Below are positions 32,552-54,584 of a stretch of 64,000 nucleotides of DNA, piece by piece. The DNA is from an uncultured Nitrospirales bacterium (GTDB lineage Bacteria; Hydrogenedentota; Hydrogenedentia; Hydrogenedentales; GCA-2746185), in contig CAYXRK010000004.1 in the NCBI GenBank assembly GCA_964467615.1, positions 2,961 through 66,960 of the forward strand. Direction: 5' to 3'. Numbering within the stretch: position 1 is the stretch's first letter; every line of letters starts with the position of its first letter. The notes below the pieces were generated by a model, which did no database searches, was not told the DNA's origin, and was given only the letters and a program-made list of their open reading frames with translations. The position numbers and the translations under genes were made by a program.

Positions 32552-32720
32552 TCGGTAAGCTCAAGGCCTCCCTTACCCGTTCGTCGTGAGGGACTGTGAA
32601 AAAATCGATTCAAACTCAACCGTGCGACCGGCATTTGCCCAGTCGGCAAGCTCAAATCCTCCCTTTCCCGTTCGTCCTGAGGGTGTCGAAGGATGCGGGG
32701 AAGGGAGGGCTTGAGCGACC
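32552..32720. repeat. three copies (two direct, one inverted) of a ~26-45 nt element forming a long hairpin
   Basis: copy A 32552-32598 and copy B 32643-32688 share tcggYaagctcaaRKcctcccttWcccgttcgtcStgaggg; 32695-32720 (gcggggaagggagggcttgagcgacc) is the reverse complement of the 5' part of B, giving a ~20-bp stem. Confidence 0.55.
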
Positions 32721-32766
32721 TTTGCTCAATTCACATCAATTCACATCCGCTGAGGATCGCAATCAC

Positions 32767-33144
32767 GTGATCTGGCCCTGGCAACGCCGCGAAAAACCCC
32801 TCGGCCAACGCGGCGAAGACCTCGCCGCACGCTACCTCCGCCGCAACGGCTACACCATCCTCGATCGCAACGTTAAGCTCGGCCGCTACGAACTCGACAT
32901 TATCGCCCGCGACGGCGACACCATCGCCTTCGTCGAAGTAAAAACCCGCCTCCCCTCAGACATCGCCACCCCCGAAGACAGCATCACGACCAAGAAACGC
33001 AAGCACCTCACCGGCGCCGCCCGCATCTACATGCAACGCAACCCCGCCCCCGACACCTACTACCGCTTCGACGTAGTCGCCATCACCATCCCACCCACCG
33101 GCAAACCCGAAATCAAACTCTACAAAAACGCGTTCGTACCGTAG
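32767..33144 (+). CDS. YraN/UPF0102-family endonuclease
   Basis: ORF 32596..33144 covers the repeat element upstream; conserved YraN core (GEDLAARYLRRNGYTILDRNVKLGRYELDIIARDGDTIAFVEVKTR...FDVVAI) begins near GTG at 32767 (GAGGAT RBS-like upstream), ~126 aa. Confidence 0.7.
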   Translation: MIWPWQRREKPLGQRGEDLAARYLRRNGYTILDRNVKLGRYELDIIARDGDTIAFVEVKTRLPSDIATPEDSITTKKRKHLTGAARIYMQRNPAPDTYYRFDVVAITIPPTGKPEIKLYKNAFVP

Positions 33145-33581
33145 CGCGGATTTGTAGTCCGCATAACGCAAGACATCCATCCTTTCGCCTTCGATCCTCC
33201 GAACCGACAAACAAATTTCGAGTCACGAACTGCCCCAAAGGGGGCAATCTGCTCGTGACCCAGGGTTGGCTCGCCTGTTGCGAATAGGCCGCCCCGTTAC
33301 GACAACCAACTGGAGTGGAGGACGCGTCAAGAGGATTATCGCGTAAGTCGCTAAATGCATTGTGACGTTGCGCCTCATGCTAGAAGAGCAGTGATGTGAT
33401 TGATGTAGATCGGTATATGACGCGCCAGCTAAATGGAGCGAACGGCAAAATAGGGTTAAAATACAAGCACTTAGGCAAATCCCTGACGGAATGCCCTGAG
33501 GCGTGTCATATGTGCACGAACAAAGAAACCCACATCTTATATGGGTCCGTCTAATTGTTGTTAGGCATCTTCGCCCGCACC

Positions 33582-34046
33582 ATGGAACACAACTTCGAGC
33601 AACTGAAGGCACACATCCTCCCTCTTTCCAACGCCCGTGATTTCGACGCCGCGAGGAGGGAGTGGGACCTTACAGGCTTCGAGTACAGCGAAGAATTTGA
33701 CAACTGCCCTTGCGGTCAACAAATAAAGGAACACTGTCTCATCCATAACCGAATCACCGGCCGCGATACTTACGTCGGTAACGTGTGCATTAACCGATTC
33801 ATCGGCATTGATACGGGGAACCTGTTCGACGGCCTCAAACGAATCGCGAAAGACAATACTGCCAACGCAAATGAAGACCTCATTCTTCACGCATACAACC
33901 TTGGCTACATCTACGAGAGTGAGTACGAGTTTCTTATGGACACGCGGCGCAAGCGAACGCTATCGCCTAAGCAATTGTCATGGAAGCAAAAAATCAACCG
34001 TCGGATCCTGAACAAGACAGTCGTTCAGAAACGGGGGCAGCTATAA
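33582..34046 (+). CDS. hypothetical Cys/His-motif protein (possible degenerate HNH/His-Me-finger)
   Basis: ORF 33555..34046, ATG at 33582; motif DNCPCGQQIKEHCLIHN...GNVCINRF; lies in a lower-GC patch. Confidence 0.45.
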   Translation: MEHNFEQLKAHILPLSNARDFDAARREWDLTGFEYSEEFDNCPCGQQIKEHCLIHNRITGRDTYVGNVCINRFIGIDTGNLFDGLKRIAKDNTANANEDLILHAYNLGYIYESEYEFLMDTRRKRTLSPKQLSWKQKINRRILNKTVVQKRGQL

Positions 34047-34197
34047 CCAGCCGCTTTACCACGACGCTTCACGGCGGCCGCGTTGCGTCCGCCATTCGCG
34101 CGGGTGAACGCCGGCGTTAGACGCCAAGGAGACATCATGACTGTCAAGCGTCTGGACAACGAAGGGCCTTGTGCGGAACGTTAGGCGCAGCTGACCA

Positions 34198-34827
34198 ATG
34201 CTAAGACGCCTGTTCGGATCCATCGTCCCATCGATACCTGACCCTGACGCCATTCTCACCAGGGAACGCGCGTATGAGGAAGCATTTGGGTCGGATGTTC
34301 AGATCCTCCACTCTACCGATCGAAAAATTCCGCACATCGATGTATACGTGTTTCCGCCTTCAGATGTGAGGGACTACTCGGTCCTTGTCACGGGTGGAAT
34401 GAGTGACATTGCCATGCAGATTCCTACAGGCGCCGCCGCTCCCGCAAACATCGAGCTGATTTTGGGAATAGGGCAACATCAGCACTGGGCTAGCAACCTG
34501 CTGAAGCTCGCGGCGGAATACCCGTCGGCGCAGGGCACATTCTACGCAGCGCACCATACGCTCCCCTTCGGGGGCGAATTGGGTGATGGGTCGTCACTGT
34601 CTGCTTTTCTTTTCATCGAGCCTCGCATCTTGCCGCCGAATTTGAGCGATTGGATGCACCGGGATCCGAAGATCGGATTTCTTCAAGCAGTACCAATTAC
34701 GACAAAGGAGCATGCTTTCGCAGTATCGAAGGGAAGCAAGGAACTCGAGACTCTTCTGGCCAAAGCCGAGTTCTTGATCACGCCGTACGCGAATCGACCA
34801 TCGGTCGTAACTGCGAGCGGCACTTAA
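34198..34827 (+). CDS. SUFU-like (Suppressor-of-fused domain) protein, immunity-protein type
   Basis: 209 aa; ...HIDVYVFPPSDVRDYSVLVTGGMSDIAMQ... matches the bacterial SUFU-family hallmark (hydrophobic strand + TxGMSD); lower GC than flanks. Confidence 0.55.
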   Translation: MLRRLFGSIVPSIPDPDAILTRERAYEEAFGSDVQILHSTDRKIPHIDVYVFPPSDVRDYSVLVTGGMSDIAMQIPTGAAAPANIELILGIGQHQHWASNLLKLAAEYPSAQGTFYAAHHTLPFGGELGDGSSLSAFLFIEPRILPPNLSDWMHRDPKIGFLQAVPITTKEHAFAVSKGSKELETLLAKAEFLITPYANRPSVVTASGT

Positions 34828-34855
34828 CAATTGTTAGCCAAAGGATCAACTTTTC

Positions 34856-36733
34856 CTACGCCGTCGCCCGCTCCTTCTCCCGTCGCCGCTTCTCCATATA
34901 CACGTGCAGGATCGAAACATCCGAAGCCCGCACACCCGGCACACGCGACGCCTGGCCGAAATTCACGGGCCGCACTTCGCGTAACCTTTGCCGGCTCTCC
35001 GCGGGCAACCCCGGCACAGCGTCATAATCGAAGTCGTCGGGCAACGGGAGCATTTCGGCCTTGCGGAATTTTTCCCAATCGCGCATTTGCCGTTCGATGT
35101 AGCCCTTGTACTTCGCCTGCACTTCGACCTGTTCCGCCGTTTCGAAATCGAGTGGCGCGGGCGGCGGCGCGAACTTCCAAACGTCCTCGATCGTCACGTC
35201 CGGCCTGCGAAGCAGCCGCACGGCGGACTGCGCCTCGATCAATTCCTCGATGCCCCGCTCGCGCAGGTACGCATTGATTTCCGCGCCCGGCAAGAGAGTC
35301 GCAGTTTCGAGCCGCGCCAATTCCTGCTCGGCGGCGATCTCTTTCGCCCTCACGCGCTGCATGAACTCTTCGCCCGCGATGCCGTATTTCGCGAGCCGGA
35401 TGTCCGCGTTGTCGTGCCGCAGCAGCAACCGGTATTCCGCGCGCGAAGTGAACAGCCGGTACGGCTCGATGACGCCGCGCGTGACCAAATCGTCCACGAG
35501 CACGCCGAGATACGCCTCGTTTCGCGCGATGTATAGCGGCGGCGCACCGTCAATCGCCCGCACCGCGTTGAACGCTGCATACAACCCCAGCGCCGCGGCC
35601 TCCTCATAGCCGGAGGTCCCGTCCACCTGCCCCGCGTGATACAGCCCGCGCACCAGCTTCGTTTCGAGCGTCGGCTTGAGCTGTGTCGGCGGAATGAAAT
35701 CGTATTCCACCGCATACCCGGGCCGGATGATCTCCGCCTCTTCGAGACCCGGCACCGTCCGCAAATATTCGAGCTGCACTTCCTCCGGCAAACTCGTCGA
35801 CAATCCGTTGACGTACACCTCCGAGGTCATCAGCCCTTCCGGTTCGAGGAAGACGCGATGCTGTTCCTTCTCCGCAAACCGCATAACTTTGTCTTCAATA
35901 CTCGGACAATACCGCGGTCCAATCCCCTCAATGACGCCCGCGTACAACGGCGACTTGTCGAGATTGCGCCGGATGACGTCGTGCGTCCGCTCGTTCGTAT
36001 ACGTCAACCAGCACACAATCTTGTTCGGCGCAAACCCCTCAATCGGCGTCGAGAACGAAAACGGCCGCGGGTCTTCGTCGCCCTCTTGCACTCCCATGAC
36101 GGCCGTGTTGATGCTCCGCCGATGAATGCGCGGCACGGTCCCCGTCTTCATCCGCCCCACTTCGAAGCCCAGCCGCCGATACGTCTTCGTCAGTTCGTTC
36201 GCGGGCATCTCTCCCCCGCGCCCGCCTTCCATCTGCGACATGCCAAAATGCAGCCGCCCGCCGAGGAACGTGCCCGAGCACACGATTATCGCGCGCGCGG
36301 TGATTTCCTGTTTCTGCGACGTGACGATCCCGCACGCCACGCCGTCGCGCACGATGAGGTCCTCGACCATGACTTGCTTGAGGTCGAGGTTCGGCGTCTC
36401 CTCGCACACGCGCTTCATGTCGTATTGATACATGATGCGGTCCGCCTGCGCGCGCGGCGAATGCACCGCCGGCCCCTTCGAGCGGTTCAGCATCTTGAAC
36501 TGGATTCCCGTGCGGTCGATGCACCGGCCCATCTCGCCGCCCAGCGCGTCAATCTCGCGGACGAGTTGGCCCTTGGCGATGCCGCCAATCGCTGGGTTGC
36601 ACGGCATCTTCGCCAGCGCGTCAAGCTGCATCGTCGCCAACAGCGTGCGCTTGCCCATCCGCGCGGACGCCAACGCCGCCTCCACCCCGGCATGCCCCGC
36701 ACCCACAATAATGATGTCGTAATCAGGATTCAT
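34856..36733 (-). CDS. mnmG: tRNA uridine-5-carboxymethylaminomethyl modification enzyme MnmG (GidA)
   Basis: ORF 34856..36778; ATG at 36733 ([22 protein letters not shown]... FAD-binding motif); core-like GC. Confidence 0.95.
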
Positions 36734-37626
36734 TGTGCAGCCGAACGTAGCGAACTGCCGTTTCCGAATGAGTAACATCGGACGTTGATTCCGAACTTTT
36801 CGCTCTCGGTTGGAAACAACGGCAATTGGCGAGACTTCGGCAAGTAAACCGGCTTCGCGTCGTCCTTAGCGACCGAATGTCCAATAAACCGTATCCACTC
36901 CCGTAATATCCGACCGGAGAATCTTACGGCGCCGTAGTGTGTCGTTTGCACTCTCTCGAGTTCGCCCTCCGGCAACCGCGCACCCCAGCTCGAAATCAAC
37001 GCCGAAAGCCGTGGTCCCAATCGATAACCAAGGCTGCTGGCGAGTATCAATGCGCGAACTACACACAAGTCAGGATGAGGATTTTCCTCTCGGTTTACTT
37101 CGACTTCACTGTTGAGGATTCCACGAAAGAACTGATCATCTCCGGAGTAGATTCGCCGAGAATGCCCTGGCCGAGGCCACACTTCGACCGCTATCGCTTC
37201 CAGATTGAGAAAGGTAGTTGACGGCAGATCCGCGAAATTTGGGGAGATTTTCCGTTCGTTGACGAACATCCAAGTCCGATCCAGTGGCCAAATGTCGAAT
37301 TGCCAATGTACTCGCTTCAATTGAAGGCCGCCAAACCTTGTCTCTCTGGCTACAATATCGTGAAATCGACTCCGCAAGGTTTCAATTCCGATATCTCGCA
37401 TAACGATGTCTACGTCCCGCGGACGACCCGGCCGGTGATAATCCAACCTAGATGTGAGAAGCGACCTCAGCGTTCCCCCGAAAAATACTGATTGCTGTTC
37501 CATCTCGCGGAGCTCGCGAACGGTTCGAGAGATCGGTCTTTTCCAATCACGGTCGTCGCGGCAAAACGATTTAACTTCCTCGCTAAGAGTCGCCTTGAGA
37601 GATTCTATGGATTGCAAGTCAGCCAT
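36730..37626 (-). CDS. Pol-beta-superfamily nucleotidyltransferase, AbiEii/MenT-like (putative)
   Basis: 298 aa; hG[GS] motif [10 protein letters not shown], acidic pair RDVDIVM about 20 aa later, further acidic residue in FDIWPLD; overlaps upstream HD gene by 8 nt and mnmG start by 4 nt; GC ~52%. Confidence 0.5.
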
Positions 37627-39007
37627 TCGTTAGCTCGGCGTGTAAACGCTTGGCGAATGAGTCCGTCATACCGCAGACGTAGTCCGTGACCAATTGCAGA
37701 CGATAGTAGGTCTCTGGAAGAGACTTGTCTTGAGAAGACCACTGAGCAAATACATTACGATAATTTCGGGACAACAATGCGCCAAGCCTACCTGGGAAAT
37801 CTGAAGTTCTCGGTTCACTTCCGATTGGAAGAGCCTCCGCCCCTTCCCAGAACAAGGTCATTAGGTCGGTGATGACACGCCGACCCATTAGCTCGAGCTT
37901 GAGTGTTGGCGGAGTGCAATAGACCTTTTGCCTACCTATTTGTTTTAGCGCAACGATGAAGTCTTTCGAACCATTGGAGTCATCGGACACCAATTCGCCC
38001 TTGTAAGTGCCTTCCATAATTGTGCGATATCGATGTTTAAAGACTTCTGTGGCCGCTCGAACCATGAATGCTATGGACGCGGTTCGAAATGCTGATCCGT
38101 GAATGTCGTCGTCCAAATCGGACTTCCCTTGAAGAATCCTATCCTTAAGATTCAAGATGTCCGTTAGTGAGTCTGGGGCTCGCACTTCAAGCATCTCTTT
38201 CACGGTACGCCAAGAGAGGATTCCCTTCTTTATCGCGTCCTCAATGTCGGCCACAGAGTAGACGATATCGTCCGCCGATTCGGCAATATATGCAAGTGGG
38301 TGCCTCGATCTACCTGTTCCAGTTGCATCTTGGATTCTCTCAACTATCTCGTTCTCGGACGCAAAGTGTCCAGGCTTCTTCGTCGCCTGATTTTCTGCTC
38401 CTCCAGATTCGTCGGACTGCGCTGTGTATTTTCGTGATGCCGACAACGTCGCAAAGGTCAAATTCAATCCGGTGTAATCAGCGAGAATCTGTAATTTCGT
38501 TACTAATCGAAGCGTTTGCGCGTTTCCCTCGAACTTCAGGAAATCTTGGACCAACTGTTCCTTTTCGGCAAAGACGCTCCGCAGTTTCTGCACCCCAAAG
38601 CATTTCACGAACCACTCTCGTATGGAGTCCTCCCCGGCGTGGCCGAACGGAGGATTGCCCAAATCATGTATGAGTCCACAAGTCGCCGCGATAGCCTCGA
38701 TCTGGCGATCAACCCCGGGATCAATTTCCTCTTCCGCTGCAAGCCACTTTGCCACCGCAATGGCCAGACCCCTGGCAACAGAGGATACTTCCAGTGAGTG
38801 CGTCAAGCGTGTCCGAATCGCGTCGTGAGGCTCAAGTGGGAAGACTTGCGCCTTGTCCTGGAGACGTTTAACTGGTGTCGAGAATATGGCGCGATCGTAG
38901 TCGCGCTCGAATTCGTCGCGATGATCGCCCGGATTGGTGGACGGACGAATTCGTTCCTTGTTCAGCAGTTGCGGCCATTTCATCACGGCGGTACGTCTCC
39001 AAAACAC
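37619..39007 (-). CDS. dGTPase-family deoxynucleoside triphosphate triphosphohydrolase (HD domain)
   Basis: 462 aa; FERDYDRAIFSTPVKRLQDKAQVF, RTRLTHSLEV and HDLGNPPFGHAGE motifs of the Dgt/dNTPase family; GC ~48%. Confidence 0.85.
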   Translation of the reverse strand: MFWRRTAVMKWPQLLNKERIRPSTNPGDHRDEFERDYDRAIFSTPVKRLQDKAQVFPLEPHDAIRTRLTHSLEVSSVARGLAIAVAKWLAAEEEIDPGVDRQIEAIAATCGLIHDLGNPPFGHAGEDSIREWFVKCFGVQKLRSVFAEKEQLVQDFLKFEGNAQTLRLVTKLQILADYTGLNLTFATLSASRKYTAQSDESGGAENQATKKPGHFASENEIVERIQDATGTGRSRHPLAYIAESADDIVYSVADIEDAIKKGILSWRTVKEMLEVRAPDSLTDILNLKDRILQGKSDLDDDIHGSAFRTASIAFMVRAATEVFKHRYRTIMEGTYKGELVSDDSNGSKDFIVALKQIGRQKVYCTPPTLKLELMGRRVITDLMTLFWEGAEALPIGSEPRTSDFPGRLGALLSRNYRNVFAQWSSQDKSLPETYYRLQLVTDYVCGMTDSFAKRLHAELTNG

Positions 39008-39141
39008 TTTCTTGCCCTTGCGTCACAAACCACCACGCTACAGTATAATAACGTCACGTTGTTTCCCGTCCAGATTCGAAACTTGGGCCGAGCCGAACAG
39101 TATAGATGCAAAAGGATGATGATGAATCCGGAGCAGGCTGG

Positions 39142-39600
39142 ATGAGATCAACTATTGTACTTTTCTTTCTTACCATATACCTGTTTGGTTGCCCCTGCGA
39201 CACCGTCGGCCCAGCCTATTTCGTGGTTGGCGAATTCGGCGACGTCGTGCACGGCGATTCGTATGTCATTCGGCTGGATGATCCGACGGATATCGCGCAT
39301 GCGCGGGAGTTGATTCGCGATCCGGAGGGCGTTGCCGCGCGGATTCTGGTCTGCTCTATTGCACCGGGGCCGGGGGACCTGCCAAACCAGGACTTCCTCA
39401 ACGGCGGCGAGCCTTGGTCGTGGCACGTGACGGAGTTTCAGGGGTTCGCGGAGTTCACGATCGAGATTCTCGACGGTTGGCCGAGCTTCGTGGAGGAAGA
39501 CATCGAGGGCTGGATCGCCAACACCAACGGCACGATCGGGTTTTGGAACTACACGGTCATCATGGAAGTGTCGCTCGAAGAGATCTCCACCACGCCGTAA
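39142..39600 (+). CDS. hypothetical lipoprotein
   Basis: ORF 39106..39600; ATG at 39142 gives MRSTIVLFFLTIYLFGCPC (signal peptide + lipobox-like LFGC); no confident family. Confidence 0.5.
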   Translation: MRSTIVLFFLTIYLFGCPCDTVGPAYFVVGEFGDVVHGDSYVIRLDDPTDIAHARELIRDPEGVAARILVCSIAPGPGDLPNQDFLNGGEPWSWHVTEFQGFAEFTIEILDGWPSFVEEDIEGWIANTNGTIGFWNYTVIMEVSLEEISTTP

Positions 39601-40083
39601 TCCCAAGGTTATCTGTTGACACGCGTCGAGGGATATCCAACGCATATTTCTCATCTTATTGGTTATAGTGAGTTCTCCTTGGCTCCGAATCCCGCCTATT
39701 TTGGGCAATGAATCTCCCGGGAGAAACAATGGGAATTATCGCTTTAACTCCCTTGTGGGCAAGCCAGCGCGGAAAACAAGGATATTTTGAGAGTCTGAGT
39801 GACGAAGGCGTGTAAGGAGATGCATGAAATCCCCTTCATTTTAAGCTTTTCTTGACGACAAGGGAGTCAACTGGATAATGCCCGAAACAATAGTCTCCGC
39901 ACTTTCCGGTTTATCGTAGAGATATCAGTTGAAACGTATTTTGAGAACTGAGAACAAGTCTTTGCGAACGATGACTGGTGACGAATCATAGCGGGACTTC
40001 TGTGCCGCCAAGATGGCGACGGTACGAAAGACGGCGCATTTCGTTTGATGGGGCGCTGCACATCGGCCGTCGCGCAAAAAGGC

Positions 40084-47441: not shown

Positions 47442-48026
47442 TTAGGCCGTCGCGGCGCGGTGGGCGGCGGTGGAGAACGCGAGCGTCAGTTCCTCGCGGA
47501 CTTCGACGCCCAACTCGCGGGCGAGTTGACCCACGACGGCGAGGTGATGGATGGCGTGACTCGAAAGGAACACGAGTTCGCGGCCGAAGGTCGAGTCGAG
47601 CTCCGCAACGGTGCCGTCCGGCGAAACGTATTGGACGACCTTGACCGGCTTGGCAAGGGCGGCGTTCGACACTGCGGCGAGACGGCGCGTAACATCGTCG
47701 AGCGCCTGCCGGAACGCATCGACGTTAGTCTCGAGGCGCAAATCGCGCGCGCGGGCGTCGTATTCGAAGCGGCCAGTCGCCATGCCGTTGACGAAGCATT
47801 GATAGTGTTCGAGGCAATGGCGGAGATGTTCGCCGATCGTTCCGGAGTGGCCGATGGGCGCGGAGAAGCGGTCCTCGCCTACATCATCGAGGAACTCAGA
47901 TATGCGGCGGCACGTCTCGAGACACCCGGCGACGGGCGCGGGTACACCGGGATAGATGGGATGGATCATTGGACGCTGGATCCCTACGAGAAACGGATTT
48001 ATTTCCGAGTATGGCCAGTCTAACAC
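47442..48026 (-). CDS. DinB/YfiT-like (DinB_2) metal-dependent protein
   Basis: 194 aa; His triad pattern HSGTIGEHLRH ... HAIHH typical of the DinB_2 four-helix-bundle family; start may be ATG at 47969. Confidence 0.65.
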   Translation of the reverse strand: MLDWPYSEINPFLVGIQRPMIHPIYPGVPAPVAGCLETCRRISEFLDDVGEDRFSAPIGHSGTIGEHLRHCLEHYQCFVNGMATGRFEYDARARDLRLETNVDAFRQALDDVTRRLAAVSNAALAKPVKVVQYVSPDGTVAELDSTFGRELVFLSSHAIHHLAVVGQLARELGVEVREELTLAFSTAAHRAATA

Positions 48027-48125
48027 AGAATTCGTAGAAACAATGTTAGGGAATCGTGCGGAAATTGCTGGGCCAAAGACCGATTTGCCGTGATAGTAGG
48101 CGGCTGTCCCCTATTCCGCCGGCTA

Positions 48126-49034
48126 CTACTCGGACTTCGGAATCAACAACCAGCCACCTTGTCTTTCGATAGGTTCACCTCTGTCGGGCTTGAGTTGGAG
48201 ACTCCAAAAGATGATCACTTCCGTTTTTTTGAGGGCTTCCGCGAGTCCGGGGAAAGACTTCTCCAAAATGATTTGCTCAGCCATTTTCTCGCCAGGCTTC
48301 AACTTGACCAGTGTCTTCGTAGGATCTGCACGGACTAGCGTTTGGGCACCAAACCTGGGAATCGTCCCAATTAGCAACATGCGGTACGACCCGCTCCACG
48401 GCTGCGAGAGGTCGTAGTCTTCGATGGGCCTTTCAAGGTTGGACTCTAGGCGGATATACAGAGTTGCCGGGTGCGCTGAATGCTCTAGGTGGACCTCTAT
48501 CGCTGTATTCGCCATCGTGGTATCTTTGAGGTTTCTAAAGATTAGCCATATGGCGTAGGGGACTAGCGCCGCTAGTATGAAGTCAGAGCGGCACTCCCTC
48601 CACATCCAGCCCAAGATGCCGGACCAAAAGCCCGTGAAGAGGAACGGGAGGAACATATCTCGAAGTCTGTCCCGAGGCCTTCCGATTTCACCTCCCCCTA
48701 TTGCATTCAAGTATTTCTTGTAGACCCAGCTGCGACGTAGATACTGGTCTGAGAGCGGCTTCATGCGTATTGGGAGGCGCTCGACGCTGAAAAACCAGTT
48801 GATCCCGACGACTATTCCCATGACGGCCAAGATCGGTCGAAGCGAGCCGTCTAGGTCGGTTTTTTCGGAAATCGTCACGAACGCGGTTAACAGGATAGTT
48901 TGTGCCAGCAAGAAGAGATTTTGCCGAGTATGGAGAAGGTTGTCGGCATGTTGATAGTAGTCCCAGGCCTCCTTGATGTCTTCCTTTGAGGGATTTGCAG
49001 AATTTGTGGGCTTTGCGGCCATGATTGTCTCCAA
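48126..49034 (-). CDS. hypothetical multi-TM protein with C-terminal soluble domain (lower-GC patch)
   Basis: 302 aa; N-terminal helix, two TM hairpins (LFLLAQTILLTAFVTI / ILAVMGIVVGINWFFSV, then MFLPFLFTGFWSGILGWMW / FILAALVPYAIWLIF), ~140-aa C-terminal domain; GC ~50%. Confidence 0.55.
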   Translation of the reverse strand: METIMAAKPTNSANPSKEDIKEAWDYYQHADNLLHTRQNLFLLAQTILLTAFVTISEKTDLDGSLRPILAVMGIVVGINWFFSVERLPIRMKPLSDQYLRRSWVYKKYLNAIGGGEIGRPRDRLRDMFLPFLFTGFWSGILGWMWRECRSDFILAALVPYAIWLIFRNLKDTTMANTAIEVHLEHSAHPATLYIRLESNLERPIEDYDLSQPWSGSYRMLLIGTIPRFGAQTLVRADPTKTLVKLKPGEKMAEQIILEKSFPGLAEALKKTEVIIFWSLQLKPDRGEPIERQGGWLLIPKSE

Positions 49035-51906: not shown

Positions 51907-53085
51907 CTACGAAAGCCAGTGCTCGACCGGGGCCTCGAAAAATTCCACGAGCGGAATGCCGTCCGCCCCGACGAGCAGCGGCCGTGCCTTGGGGAATTCC
52001 CGGCAGAATTGCTGAATACCTGGCAAGCCATCGCGCCTGCGGCCGCTTTTTACTTCGATGGCCACGAGTTTCTTTCCCCGGCGCAGCACGTAGTCCACTT
52101 CCTTATTGTTGGCGGCCCAATAGTGCAATTCGATGTCTTGGCCGATGATTCCGTTCGCAAGCGTCGCACCCACGGCAGACTCGACAAGTTGTCCCCAGTA
52201 CGCCGGGTCGCGGCGCGCATCGTTGAATGGGACCCCACGCATTGCCGTGACCAGTGCCGAGTTCATCGCAACGAATTTCGGGCTGGAGGCCCGCCGCCGC
52301 ACGTTTTGGCCCGAATACTTTTGGAGACCGATGAGAAGTCCGGCGTTTCCCAAGAGTTCCAAGTAATGCGCCAACGTGGTCGTGTTTCCCGCGTCTTGCA
52401 GTTGGCCCAGCATTTTCTGGTACGAAAGAATCCGGCCCGAATACGAACAACCCAAATCGAACAATCGGCGGAGGAGCGCGGGCTTGTCCACGCGCGACAT
52501 CAGCAGCACGTCGCGCGAGACGGAGGTCTCGATCAGGGAATCGAGCACGTAGCGCGCCCAGCGATCAGGTTCTTCGATAAGCGGCGCGGCGCCGGGATAG
52601 CCCCCGTGGTACACATACTGTTCCAACGACCAGCCGAAGGCATCGCGCATCTCGGGATAAGACCAGTGCGTGACTGGGATGACCTCGAACCTTCCCGTCA
52701 AACTTTCCGCCAAACCGCGCTGCACCAGTAACGGAGACGAGCCGAGGAGAACAACTCGGACATCAACGGCGGCCGCAGTGTCCTCATCCCAGAGGCGCTT
52801 CACCGTTTCAGACCATGCGGTAAGTTTTTGCACTTCATCGAGAATGAGAACAGACGGCGCGTTGTTACGCAGCCGGGCGATCTCCCATTGCTGCGCAATC
52901 CAGGTAGAATCTTTCAGGGCCGGTTCATCCGCGGAAGCGTAGTGACTTGGTACGCCGAGCGATTCGACAAGTTGCCGCGCGATCGTCGTCTTGCCGGTTT
53001 GACGGGGCCCTGCCAGAACCTGAATGAATCGCCGAGGTTCGATGAGGCGCCGTTGGAGTTTGTAGAAGGCGGTGCGTGTGACCAT
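51907..53085 (-). CDS. AAA+ ATPase (AAA_14 + DUF4143 architecture)
   Basis: ORF 51907..53097, ATG at 53085; Walker A GPRQTGKTT, Walker B VLILDEVQ; C-terminal DUF4143-like region. Confidence 0.8.
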   Translation of the reverse strand: MVTRTAFYKLQRRLIEPRRFIQVLAGPRQTGKTTIARQLVESLGVPSHYASADEPALKDSTWIAQQWEIARLRNNAPSVLILDEVQKLTAWSETVKRLWDEDTAAAVDVRVVLLGSSPLLVQRGLAESLTGRFEVIPVTHWSYPEMRDAFGWSLEQYVYHGGYPGAAPLIEEPDRWARYVLDSLIETSVSRDVLLMSRVDKPALLRRLFDLGCSYSGRILSYQKMLGQLQDAGNTTTLAHYLELLGNAGLLIGLQKYSGQNVRRRASSPKFVAMNSALVTAMRGVPFNDARRDPAYWGQLVESAVGATLANGIIGQDIELHYWAANNKEVDYVLRRGKKLVAIEVKSGRRRDGLPGIQQFCREFPKARPLLVGADGIPLVEFFEAPVEHWLS

Positions 53086-53105
53086 GACAGTAACCAAGTT
53101 TTGGT

Positions 53106-53191
53106 TTACTCAACGCATTGAGTAATTTTACTCAATACACTGAGTAAATTTACTCAACGTACTGAGTAATTTTACTCAACGTATTGAGTAA
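53106..53191. promoter_or_regulatory. array of four tandem 20-bp palindromic operator-like sites (22-nt period)
   Basis: ttactcaaCGCATtgagtaa / ttactcaaTACACtgagtaa / ttactcaaCGTACtgagtaa / ttactcaaCGTATtgagtaa, each TTACTCA-N6-TGAGTAA; 20 nt upstream of ATPase start, in the divergent region with the hydrolase gene. Confidence 0.6.
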
Positions 53192-53246
53192 ATGCAATAC
53201 CCTGGCATAAAACGACTGAATCATGCAGTTATTTATGTAAAAATCG

Positions 53247-54143
53247 ATGAAGCAAACCGATTCCCAAGCGACGAATGACAAGGCTTTTATGCTCGTGAGT
53301 AAACGCTTGCGCCGATGGACGATGCGAATCGCGTTGGCGATGTTTCTAATTTTCTGGGTCGTGTACGGCATCGCGTGCCAGATGTCGGAGACGGAATTTT
53401 CGAGGCGGCCGGAGCCGGGGATGCAACTGGGCGAATACGCGACGGCGACGCCGTGGACGATTACCTATCTCTCCGGCGGCGAACCGGGGGCGCCGCGCAT
53501 CATCTACGTTCACGGCACGCCGGGGAGCGCGAGCGCGTTCGACGATTACCTCGAGCGGCCTATCGCGGGCTTCGAGGGCTTCAGCATCGACCGGCCCGGA
53601 TTCGGCGACACGCGCCCGCCGAAACCGGCGTACACGCTGCACGAGCAGGCGCTGGTCATCGGGCCGCTGTTGGTCGAGTGCGGCGGCCAGTGGCCGATCC
53701 TCGTGGGGCATTCGCTGGGCGCGCCGATCATTTGTCGCGTCGCGGCGGAGTATCCGGATCGCGTGCGCGGCCTTGTGCTGCTGTCGGGGTCGCTGAACCC
53801 GAAGGAAGAGCACATCGCGTGGTATCAGCGATTGGGCGATTTCGCATTCGTGCCGTACTTGTTGCCGCGCTGGCTGCGCAACACGAACCGCGAATTGTTT
53901 CCGATGAAGAAAGAGTTGGAGGAACTCGCGCCGATGCTCGGCGAACTACGCTGCCCAACGGTGATCGTCCACGCCAAGAACGATTCGCTTGTGCCGTTCG
54001 GAAACGTCCAGTACATGCGCGAGACGATCCCGAAGGACACGGTCGTGAAGATCGTCGAACTCGAGGACAAGAACCACTTCATCCCGTGGAACGCGGAATC
54101 GGTCGTCCGCGATGCGATTGAGGCGGTGGCGAAGGCGTCGTAA
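53247..54143 (+). CDS. alpha/beta-fold hydrolase
   Basis: 298 aa; nucleophile elbow GHSLGA, HGTPGS oxyanion region; N-terminal TM/signal segment. Confidence 0.8.
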   Translation: MKQTDSQATNDKAFMLVSKRLRRWTMRIALAMFLIFWVVYGIACQMSETEFSRRPEPGMQLGEYATATPWTITYLSGGEPGAPRIIYVHGTPGSASAFDDYLERPIAGFEGFSIDRPGFGDTRPPKPAYTLHEQALVIGPLLVECGGQWPILVGHSLGAPIICRVAAEYPDRVRGLVLLSGSLNPKEEHIAWYQRLGDFAFVPYLLPRWLRNTNRELFPMKKELEELAPMLGELRCPTVIVHAKNDSLVPFGNVQYMRETIPKDTVVKIVELEDKNHFIPWNAESVVRDAIEAVAKAS

Positions 54144-54329
54144 CAACCGCCGCCACAATCGCATCCGCGATAGCCTGCAAGCCGAGAACAATCCACTTTA
54201 TCACGCCGCCGAAAGCGATCCAAAAACTGACCTGTTCAAAATGGCGAACTGTGGCATTGAGCCTCGTTGCGGTGAACCTCATCCGTTGATATCATTACGT
54301 AGATCGCAACGGTTGATTTGATTCGACGT

Positions 54330-54494
54330 ATGAGTAGCAAGATCAATCTAAATTACATTGCCAGATCCGACCGTGATCCAAACGTTCGTATTGCCGCAGT
54401 GCAGAGGCTCACTAGCGGGATCGATTTGAATTACATTGCCACGCACGACTCTGATCCAAGCGTTCGTATTGCCGCAGTCAAGCAATTGCGTTGA
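54330..54494 (+). CDS. 54-aa mini-ORF of two PBS-lyase HEAT-like repeats (possible gene remnant)
   Basis: MSSKINLNYIARSDRDPNVRIAAVQRLTSGIDLNYIATHDSDPSVRIAAVKQLR; encoded by a ~78-nt tandem DNA repeat; below the 60-aa ORF-track cutoff. Confidence 0.25.
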   Translation: MSSKINLNYIARSDRDPNVRIAAVQRLTSGIDLNYIATHDSDPSVRIAAVKQLR

Positions 54495-54584
54495 TTGCAG
54501 TGGGATAAGACATTTAAGCTATCGAATGGCTTGCAATAGGACGCAAGGGGTGAGTTCCCATTCGCCAGCCCCACGCCACGAATA

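Follow-up and report, generated by a model that had tools for sequence, protein, structure and literature searches.

Several described systems resemble parts of the locus analyzed here. Three-component toxin modules of the Xre-COG2856 type were predicted in 2009. In RosmerTA, a zinc-peptidase antitoxin (RmrA) is combined with diverse toxins (RmrT) of unknown function (Millman et al., 2022; Ernits et al., 2023). The CapH/CapP switch, as far as it is described in the published abstracts, comprises an Xre-type helix-turn-helix (HTH) repressor and an ImmA/IrrE peptidase, which single-stranded DNA (ssDNA) switches on and which derepresses the cargo by cleaving the repressor. Proteins of the SUFU superfamily have been predicted to confer immunity against polymorphic toxins, those with an HNH fold among them (Zhang et al., 2012, PMC3482391). 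The locus is an islet of ~1.7 kb on contig CAYXRK010000004.1, located within a stretch of 64,000 nucleotides that was analyzed as a whole and is called the window in the following. As read from the sequence, the islet is bounded by yraN and mnmG and contains two genes on the + strand, namely gene 1 (33582–34046), which encodes a protein of 154 amino acids (aa), and gene 2 (34198–34827), which encodes a SUFU-domain protein of 209 aa. On balance, a slight preference is given to the reading that this is a foreign islet with two functionally unrelated accessory genes, which are neighbors in this genome only.

In the preliminary description of the islet, the two genes had been interpreted as a cognate pair of the toxin-immunity or toxin-antitoxin (TA) type, an interpretation that is not supported by their distribution. 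Using a profile of the gene-2 subfamily, a SUFU gene of this type was found in 0 of 103 gene-1 loci outside the window (±6 kb), and using the gene-1 profile, a gene-1 relative was found in 0 of seven gene-2 loci. The downstream neighbors of gene 1 showed no resemblance to SUFU, even at E ≤ 10 and with the filters switched off. Two downstream open reading frames (ORFs) of 208 aa, which had been suspected as gene-2 relatives on the basis of their length, are unrelated to gene 2. Because the pair test was negative, the juxtaposition is best explained by two independent acquisitions into one and the same permissive spot, and it is highly probable that the islet holds two independent foreign genes and not a cognate pair. 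None of the best 150 of the 1,274 family representatives, which are 70–474 aa long, carries the gene-1 domain as the C-terminal tip of a large secreted protein. In agreement with the preliminary description, the window showed no large secreted toxin; of its 20 ORFs of at least 400 aa, 10 were scanned and assigned to housekeeping or unrelated functions. A toxin-like role for gene 1 is possible, and the partner found elsewhere would then be an HTH/ImmA-IrrE protein and not a SUFU protein.

The islet is compositionally foreign and was probably acquired horizontally. Its GC content of 0.531 corresponds to the 3rd percentile of all 1.7-kb windows in the 64 kb (mean 0.597, sd 0.029), and gene 1 and gene 2 have a GC content at third codon positions (GC3) of 0.64 and 0.605, respectively, vs. 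0.81–0.83 for the flanking genes scpA, yraN and mnmG. The lower GC content that had been noticed earlier therefore exceeds chance within the window, and the horizontal acquisition proposed on this basis agrees with the foreign GC and GC3 values. A foreign origin is further supported by the 81% identity of gene 1 to a protein of Arhodomonas (Gammaproteobacteria), the YraN protein of the window having no relative above 56% identity. The window belongs to a metagenome-assembled genome of Candidatus Hydrogenedentota from groundwater well H51 at Hainich, where three samples, taken independently, yielded the islet with identical sequence.

Gene 1 had been considered a possible degenerate HNH or His-Me-finger nuclease due to a compact arrangement of Cys and His residues. 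The quoted string (DNCPCGQQIKEHCLIHN...GNVCINRF) and the H-x3-H-N motif are indeed present in the window copy, but neither His is conserved across the family: in an alignment of 55 diverse homologues (down to ~35% identity), H51 and H55 vary, and N56 alone is invariant at that site. The residues W28, C42, C44, N56 and C69 are invariant in this alignment, and C52, G66, N67, E27, E114, F117 and Q131 are conserved in at least 90% of the homologues. The beta-beta-alpha-metal motif of HNH and His-Me-finger nucleases, in contrast, has a conserved catalytic His at the end of its first strand. For gene 1 itself, no match was obtained in Pfam (E ≤ 1), NCBIfam or PADLOC including its RmrT models, and nothing significant in PHROGs. 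Searching 55 family members against Pfam at E ≤ 1 yielded no recurring HNH-type family, and sequence searches of the PDB, for which the protein, its two halves separately and the family profile served as queries, resulted in marginal matches to CtsR and coiled coils only. Gene 1 thus shares with the HNH and His-Me nucleases, including the NGO1392-like ones, the Cys-rich character, a predicted beta-beta-alpha element and conserved Asn residues, but differs from them in having neither a conserved catalytic His or DH motif nor a profile or fold match. As judged from these sequence comparisons, gene 1 lies outside HNH and every other described family, and the nuclease assignment is not supported.

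The structure of the gene-1 protein was predicted with AlphaFold2 using the alignment of 55 homologues, and the N-domain was also modelled alone; both models are confident (pLDDT 91.9 and pTM 0.79 for the whole protein, pLDDT 91.1 for the N-domain). The predicted N-terminal alpha/beta domain begins with two helices, which are followed by a long beta-hairpin with C42-x-C44 at its turn, by a third strand and by a short helix that bears C69. The predicted C-terminal domain (residues 79–147) is a four-helix bundle, and the tail of the protein is strongly basic, with a net charge of +12 across the last 34 residues. The four conserved Cys residues, all in the N-domain (C42, C44, C52 and C69), suggest a metal site. 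In a Foldseek search against the PDB, the best E-value was 0.47 with the model of the whole protein and 0.62 with that of the N-domain, and the top 50 matches included no nuclease; the search against BFVD gave weak matches only (TM 0.3–0.4) to uncharacterized phage and giant-virus proteins. The sole Pfam family that recurs among the relatives of gene 1 is the CtsR C-terminal dimerization domain (CtsR_C, PF17727), which was matched by six of 45 C-terminal halves (best E = 2.4e-5), the window copy not being one of them. Alignments to CtsR chains of the PDB also fall in this region, but the E-values obtained with the family profile for the C-terminal helices are marginal (0.41–0.81), and the N-domain of gene 1, unlike that of CtsR, is not a winged helix. 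The CtsR_C similarity is a marginal one and may be taken as a lead, not as an assignment.

The gene-1 family is very large, unnamed and without a domain model or structural relative. A word-indexed search resulted in 988 clusters at 90% identity, and an exhaustive search of 50%-identity representatives in 1,274 clusters at E ≤ 0.001 and 667 at E ≤ 1e-10, all source names being "hypothetical protein". No publication on family members was found in the literature by RefSeq accession, nor in the NetFlax supplements. Proteins with 65–81% identity to gene 1 of the window span at least nine phyla and include those of Gamma-, Beta- and Alphaproteobacteria, Nitrospirota, Kiritimatiellota, Planctomycetota, Acidobacteriota and Myxococcota; a Synechococcus plasmid carries a homologue with 66% identity. 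The 80 genomic gene-1 loci were retrieved by closer alignment and therefore sample the close subfamily only (≥65% identity). Between loci, the nucleotide similarity is ~70% and ends at the boundaries of the gene-1 coding sequence (CDS). Compared with the protein identity of 65–81%, this nucleotide value indicates strong purifying selection on the gene-1 protein, and since the DNA similarity ends at the CDS limits, the mobile unit is no larger than gene 1. Two family members have an extended architecture. One protein of 474 aa (P0190) is a natural fusion of an Abi_C (HEPN-like) domain followed by the gene-1 domain, whereas another of 409 aa (P0239) contains the full gene-1 domain followed by three more copies of a ~40-aa C-terminal helical motif ("I-N-x-W-E-x-x-F ... 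LS-x-KQ"), which therefore constitutes an autonomous, repeatable module. The other fusion candidates (P0230, P0178 and others) revealed nothing informative, so that Abi_C is the sole informative partner.

Judged from the sequence context of its members, the gene-1 family travels as single-gene cargo on plasmids, in prophages, on satellite-like elements and in defense islands. In 94 of 96 loci, gene 1 has a lower GC content than the surrounding ±6 kb, with an average difference of 8.5 points. In total, 89 plasmid records with a gene-1 match were found, of which 78 are conjugative. In P2-like prophages of Aeromonas, the homologue is located in the cargo slot between gpS and gpV. The cargo block of these prophages (L005–L008, 6854–8465) comprises a protein of 255–261 aa of unknown function, a P22_AR_C antirepressor-like protein and the gene-1 homologue, and separates the tail-completion gene gpS from the baseplate spike gene gpV. 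On IMG/VR contigs, the neighbors of the homologues include NinG, an SNase-like gene, a DnaB-like helicase and an integrase, and phage nin regions are among the sites of the family. The only E. coli homologue detected by nucleotide search (1 of 5,426 genomes) is located on the chromosome of strain E203449 (L131, 67–8706), where it adjoins the tyrosine integrase of a small integrative element. This element also holds a major-capsid gene, an HTH gene and DUF6945, and its insertion site adjoins the nan genes and a phosphorothioate-dependent restriction gene that is truncated. Among 50,697 deposited phage genomes, no gene-1 match was found, which argues against a typical lytic-phage counter-defense gene.

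For the analysis of the gene-1 neighborhoods, ORFs were called around 72–99 loci and the immediate neighbors were scanned. These neighbors are heterogeneous and rich in components of conflict systems, including Peptidase_M78, HTH_3, DUF6527/ThiF (ubiquitin-like system), an AAA ATPase with a subtilase, KwaB, DUF4917, methylases, integrases, Abi_2, Mrr, Vsr, ArdC and an OLD/Gabija-like ATPase-TOPRIM protein with a UvrD helicase. PADLOC analysis of 143 neighbors assigned 11 to capP, 10 to RmrA and six to GajA/Old-like proteins. By iterative search, HTH/M78 ORFs were detected within 6 kb in 28 of 99 loci, 26 of them upstream and two downstream of gene 1. In 11 loci, belonging to Rhizobiaceae plasmids, Pseudomonas, Caballeronia, Sphingomonas and Novosphingobium, the HTH/M78 genes immediately precede gene 1 in the same orientation and are separated from it by a few bases, and in ~11 other loci they are divergent from an operon that ends in gene 1. 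Gene 1 is usually found at the 3′ end of operons. This recurrent and oriented association with HTH/ImmA-IrrE switches is the only recurrent neighborhood found for gene 1, the solo gene being the majority state across bacteria.

On rhizobial plasmids, an operon of HTH, M78 and gene 1 lies opposite a divergently oriented CBASS-like operon, which encodes a CD-NTase (SMODS/DncV-like), a 163-aa protein and an HNH endonuclease. In the Agrobacterium plasmid pLN1-183666 (L009, 3760–8471), for example, the gene-1 homologue is the third gene of an HTH + ImmA/IrrE operon, and the same layout was found in L039, L042, L047, L053, L054 and L061. The order of HTH and M78 opposite a CD-NTase operon corresponds to the layout given for CapH/CapP in the published abstracts, in which a third gene of the capH-capP operons is not mentioned. 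The divergent HTH-M78 pairs of the ~11 other loci are a further likeness to CapH/CapP. Differences are that gene 1 is appended to the regulator operon on the plasmids and is not among the known regulated effectors, and that the window contains no such regulator. The likeness to RosmerTA is based on 10–11 loci, in which the gene that immediately precedes the gene-1 homologue is matched by the PADLOC models for RmrA and capP with E-values down to 1e-63–1e-70; both genes are co-directional with near-zero spacing, and RmrT partners are heterogeneous by definition. In contrast to RosmerTA, gene 1 matches no RmrT model of PADLOC, and neither the window copy nor most of its relatives have an RmrA-like gene nearby.

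The second gene of the islet could be assigned with the Pfam model SUFU (PF05076), as had been proposed from the string HIDVYVFPP...VLVTGGMSD. Residues 45–194 of gene 2 align to profile positions 3–166 of 172 (E = 1.4e-24; 87.3 bits at a cut-off of 25), and PF05076 was found in all 41 retrieved homologues, which identifies gene 2 at the profile level as a member of the SUFU superfamily. The preliminary description agrees with Zhang et al. (2012, PMC3482391) in regarding this superfamily as a source of immunity proteins against polymorphic toxins. The neighborhoods of the gene-2 homologues differ between the seven loci. The homologue with 88% identity is preceded by an acetyltransferase, and the one with 85% identity is preceded by a DUF998 membrane protein and located among small genes, including an antitoxin-like gene. 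A homologue with 60% identity (L015, 1112–2286) directly follows a WapI-family immunity gene within a series of small genes on one strand, an arrangement that looks like a poly-immunity locus. In another locus (L110), the homologue is located 300 nt downstream of a gene for a 994-aa CLIPPER-repeat protein, and the remaining ones are preceded by unknown proteins or stand alone. PDB searches with the C-terminus of the 994-aa protein and with the upstream gene of locus L111 gave no match. Gene 2 resembles many immunity genes in being an orphan among small heterogeneous genes, and one homologue adjoins a WapI-family immunity gene; it differs from the described Imm-SuFu genes in that a search for an upstream toxin gene identified none, either in the islet or in the seven related loci. 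Due to this difference, an immunity function of gene 2 would be assigned by analogy only, and most simply gene 2 would be an orphan immunity-type gene.

The function that is tentatively proposed for gene 1 is that of a conditionally active conflict effector, either similar to the RosmerTA toxins (RmrT-like) or of the abortive-infection type. Gene 1 of the window is a solo copy of a widespread and strongly constrained family of soluble proteins (~154 aa) with four conserved Cys residues and two domains. In about a quarter of the related loci, the homologue belongs to an operon that starts with an Xre-type HTH repressor and an ImmA/IrrE (M78) zinc peptidase, or is divergent from such an operon. 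This corresponds to a switch of the CapH/CapP or RosmerTA-RmrA type, in which the peptidase cleaves the repressor and the cargo is derepressed. The Cys-bearing domain and the basic, helical, dimer-like domain would then bind a conserved cellular or nucleic-acid target. Before the trigger the protein would be harmless, and this proposed harmlessness would explain why gene 1 tolerates a solo existence. Gene 2 may, by analogy, neutralize an incoming HNH-fold or similar polymorphic toxin of competitors, the window itself holding no cognate toxin. In this scheme, we infer the metal binding, the dimerization and the effector role of gene 1 as well as the immunity role of gene 2. A more specific version, in which the gene-1 family represents an unrecognized single-protein anti-phage effector of the abortive-infection type with a new fold, which stands alone in most genomes, is possible but doubtful; with the same reserve, a subset of the family would be under the control of a DNA-damage- or ssDNA-sensing switch of the CapH/CapP or RmrA type, and the conservation would reflect the recognition of a universal target.

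Several points weigh against the proposed effector function and the assigned roles. Neither experiment nor homology links gene 1 to any activity, and it has no match to the PADLOC models, RmrT included. A true toxin without a neutralizer would be hard to keep. An identity of 65–81% across phyla is unusual for defense effectors, which tend to diversify, and such conservation would be just as compatible with a regulator or with a protein that binds a universal host factor. No HTH/M78 ORF was found in the 64-kb window, and ~70% of the gene-1 loci have none nearby. Furthermore, the association with these switches is weaker than the raw counts indicate because mobile elements in general often carry ImmA/IrrE pairs and the loci are not independent of each other in phylogenetic terms, and the gene calls of the neighbors were made with a crude ORF picker. 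With respect to gene 2, no toxin was recognizable upstream of the homologues in the seven loci, and the presumed immunity role is derived from the literature at the level of the superfamily.

The main rival explanation, which is considered rather unlikely, regards gene 1 as a regulator or counter-defense factor of mobile elements, i.e., a small Zn-binding dimer that binds DNA, RNA or a universal host protein and might modulate the stress or SOS responses of the host or inhibit one of its defenses. It would account well for the strong purifying selection seen over at least nine phyla (65–81% protein and ~70% nucleotide identity), the basic tail (net +12 over the last 34 residues), the weakly CtsR-like C-terminal helices (PF17727 in 6 of 45; best E = 2.4e-5; E ~0.4 for CtsR in the PDB) and the genomic context, in which 78 of 89 plasmid matches are conjugative, phage early nin regions recur and ArdC is among the neighbors. 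However, the resemblance to CtsR_C is marginal and stays under any significance threshold when the whole profile is considered, the 50,697 deposited phage genomes yielded no match, no conserved DNA that might serve as an operator adjoins gene 1, and gene 1 is mostly located at the 3′ end of operons, whereas known defense regulators sit upstream.

The original interpretation as a free-standing TA-like cassette, with gene 1 as a degenerate HNH/His-Me-finger toxin and gene 2 as its cognate SUFU immunity protein, is very improbable. The two genes are direct neighbors with the same orientation, separated by 151 nt and each low in GC, the predicted end of the N-domain has a beta-beta-alpha order (E47-56, E62-66, H67-73) with the invariant N56 and the highly conserved N67, and Imm-SuFu proteins have been reported beside HNH-fold toxins, including the Cys-rich NGO1392-like "SuFu-associated nuclease" (CxxC, DH, CxxC, Q) (PMC3482391). 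These features are outweighed by the lack of co-occurrence in either direction (0/103 and 0/7) and of any SUFU-like neighbor at E ≤ 10, by the lack of a conserved His or DH, of a recurring HNH family (55 members, E ≤ 1) and of a Foldseek match in the PDB, by the fact that among the best 150 representatives the gene-1 domain never tips a large secreted protein, and by the different genes that precede the closest gene-2 relatives (85–88% identity). Another reading, according to which a mobile element has decayed and left the two genes behind as inert remnants that currently have no function in this Hydrogenedentota genome, is likewise improbable. Such a decay would be consistent with the missing integrase, repeat or tRNA at the islet borders, with a 437-nt leader without recognizable promoter and with the lack of an HTH/M78 or toxin partner, but both ORFs are full-length and have kept all family-invariant residues, the sequence is identical in three independent samples from the same groundwater well, and a solo gene 1 is the majority state across bacteria.

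The rejection of the toxin-immunity cassette spares the locus a wrong annotation. Its value lies in gene 1 as the marker of a large unnamed family that recurs beside immune systems and damage-sensing regulators. If the family indeed represents a new conflict effector or regulator, a widespread component would be added to the catalogue of defense systems and mobile-element cargo, and thousands of "hypothetical proteins" would receive a function. Soluble homologues exist in tractable hosts, namely Pseudomonas, Aeromonas, Agrobacterium and one E. coli strain, and the family is a good candidate for experimental work.

The boundaries given in the preliminary description, i.e., the ends of yraN and mnmG, the coordinates of both genes and ~400 nt of non-coding sequence, match the sequence. 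The stop codon of yraN is located at 33142–33144 and is followed by a non-coding leader of 437 nt with a GC content of 0.513 (33145–33581); mnmG is encoded on the - strand (34856–36778). The leader was searched with Rfam, and no RNA family was matched inside it. In a blastn comparison with 95 related loci, the matches were confined to the gene-1 CDS and never included the leader. The scan of the islet for promoters and terminators gave a signal no higher than in shuffled sequence, leaving the leader without a recognizable promoter, and no terminator-like site was found in the spacer of 151 nt between gene 1 and gene 2 (34047–34197; GC 0.636). Direct or inverted repeats bracketing the islet were not detected, nor was an integrase at its borders, and the 64-kb window contains no tRNA. 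An empty site, in which yraN abuts mnmG, was sought by a metagenome scan with YraN, but the relatives had at most 56% identity and none had an adjacent mnmG.

A mini-ORF of 15 codons (MTVKRLDNEGPCAER) had been described between the two genes. It exists on the + strand and is preceded by an AAGGAG motif (34126–34131), but its position was given one base off, the correct one being 34137–34184, and it represents the tail of an ORF listed at 34083–34184. As no counterpart was found upstream of the gene-2 homologues in six other loci (including L014, L015, L110, L111 and L113), the mini-ORF is without comparative support.

A second islet of low GC content (~0.50; GC3 0.54), likewise foreign, is located on the - strand at the far side of mnmG (36730–39007), so that mnmG is bracketed by two accessory islets. 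It comprises a 462-aa gene with HD and HD_assoc domains (dGTPase-like), the last codons of which overlap the start of a 298-aa gene without a Pfam domain. The overlapping pair (~460 aa HD protein and ~300 aa protein) recurs in two of the three homologous loci examined (L133 and L134), in the latter near genes for HATPase_c_3 (MORC-like) ATPases; in the third (L132), the 300-aa gene stands alone and adjoins a DNA methylase. The HD gene and the 298-aa gene possibly form a two-gene conflict module.

A further patch of low GC content (0.47–0.56) extends from 39000 to 40000 and contains the gene of a 164-aa protein with a BP74_N domain (39106–39600, + strand), which is overlapped by an opposite-strand ORF of 193 aa that belongs to no family. 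Additional dips to a GC content of 0.51–0.52 are located at 48000–49000, 53000–53500 and 54000–54500. For yraN, the mechanically predicted ORF starts at 32596 (182 aa), whereas the conserved form of 125 aa begins at 32767 according to the gene calls in identical contigs, in agreement with the family models (~32767). In the region upstream of this start, sub-threshold Rfam matches were obtained on both strands (32596–32766 and 32646–32723; small SRP with 23 bits and mir-320 with 20 bits), which probably reflect a GC-rich hairpin.

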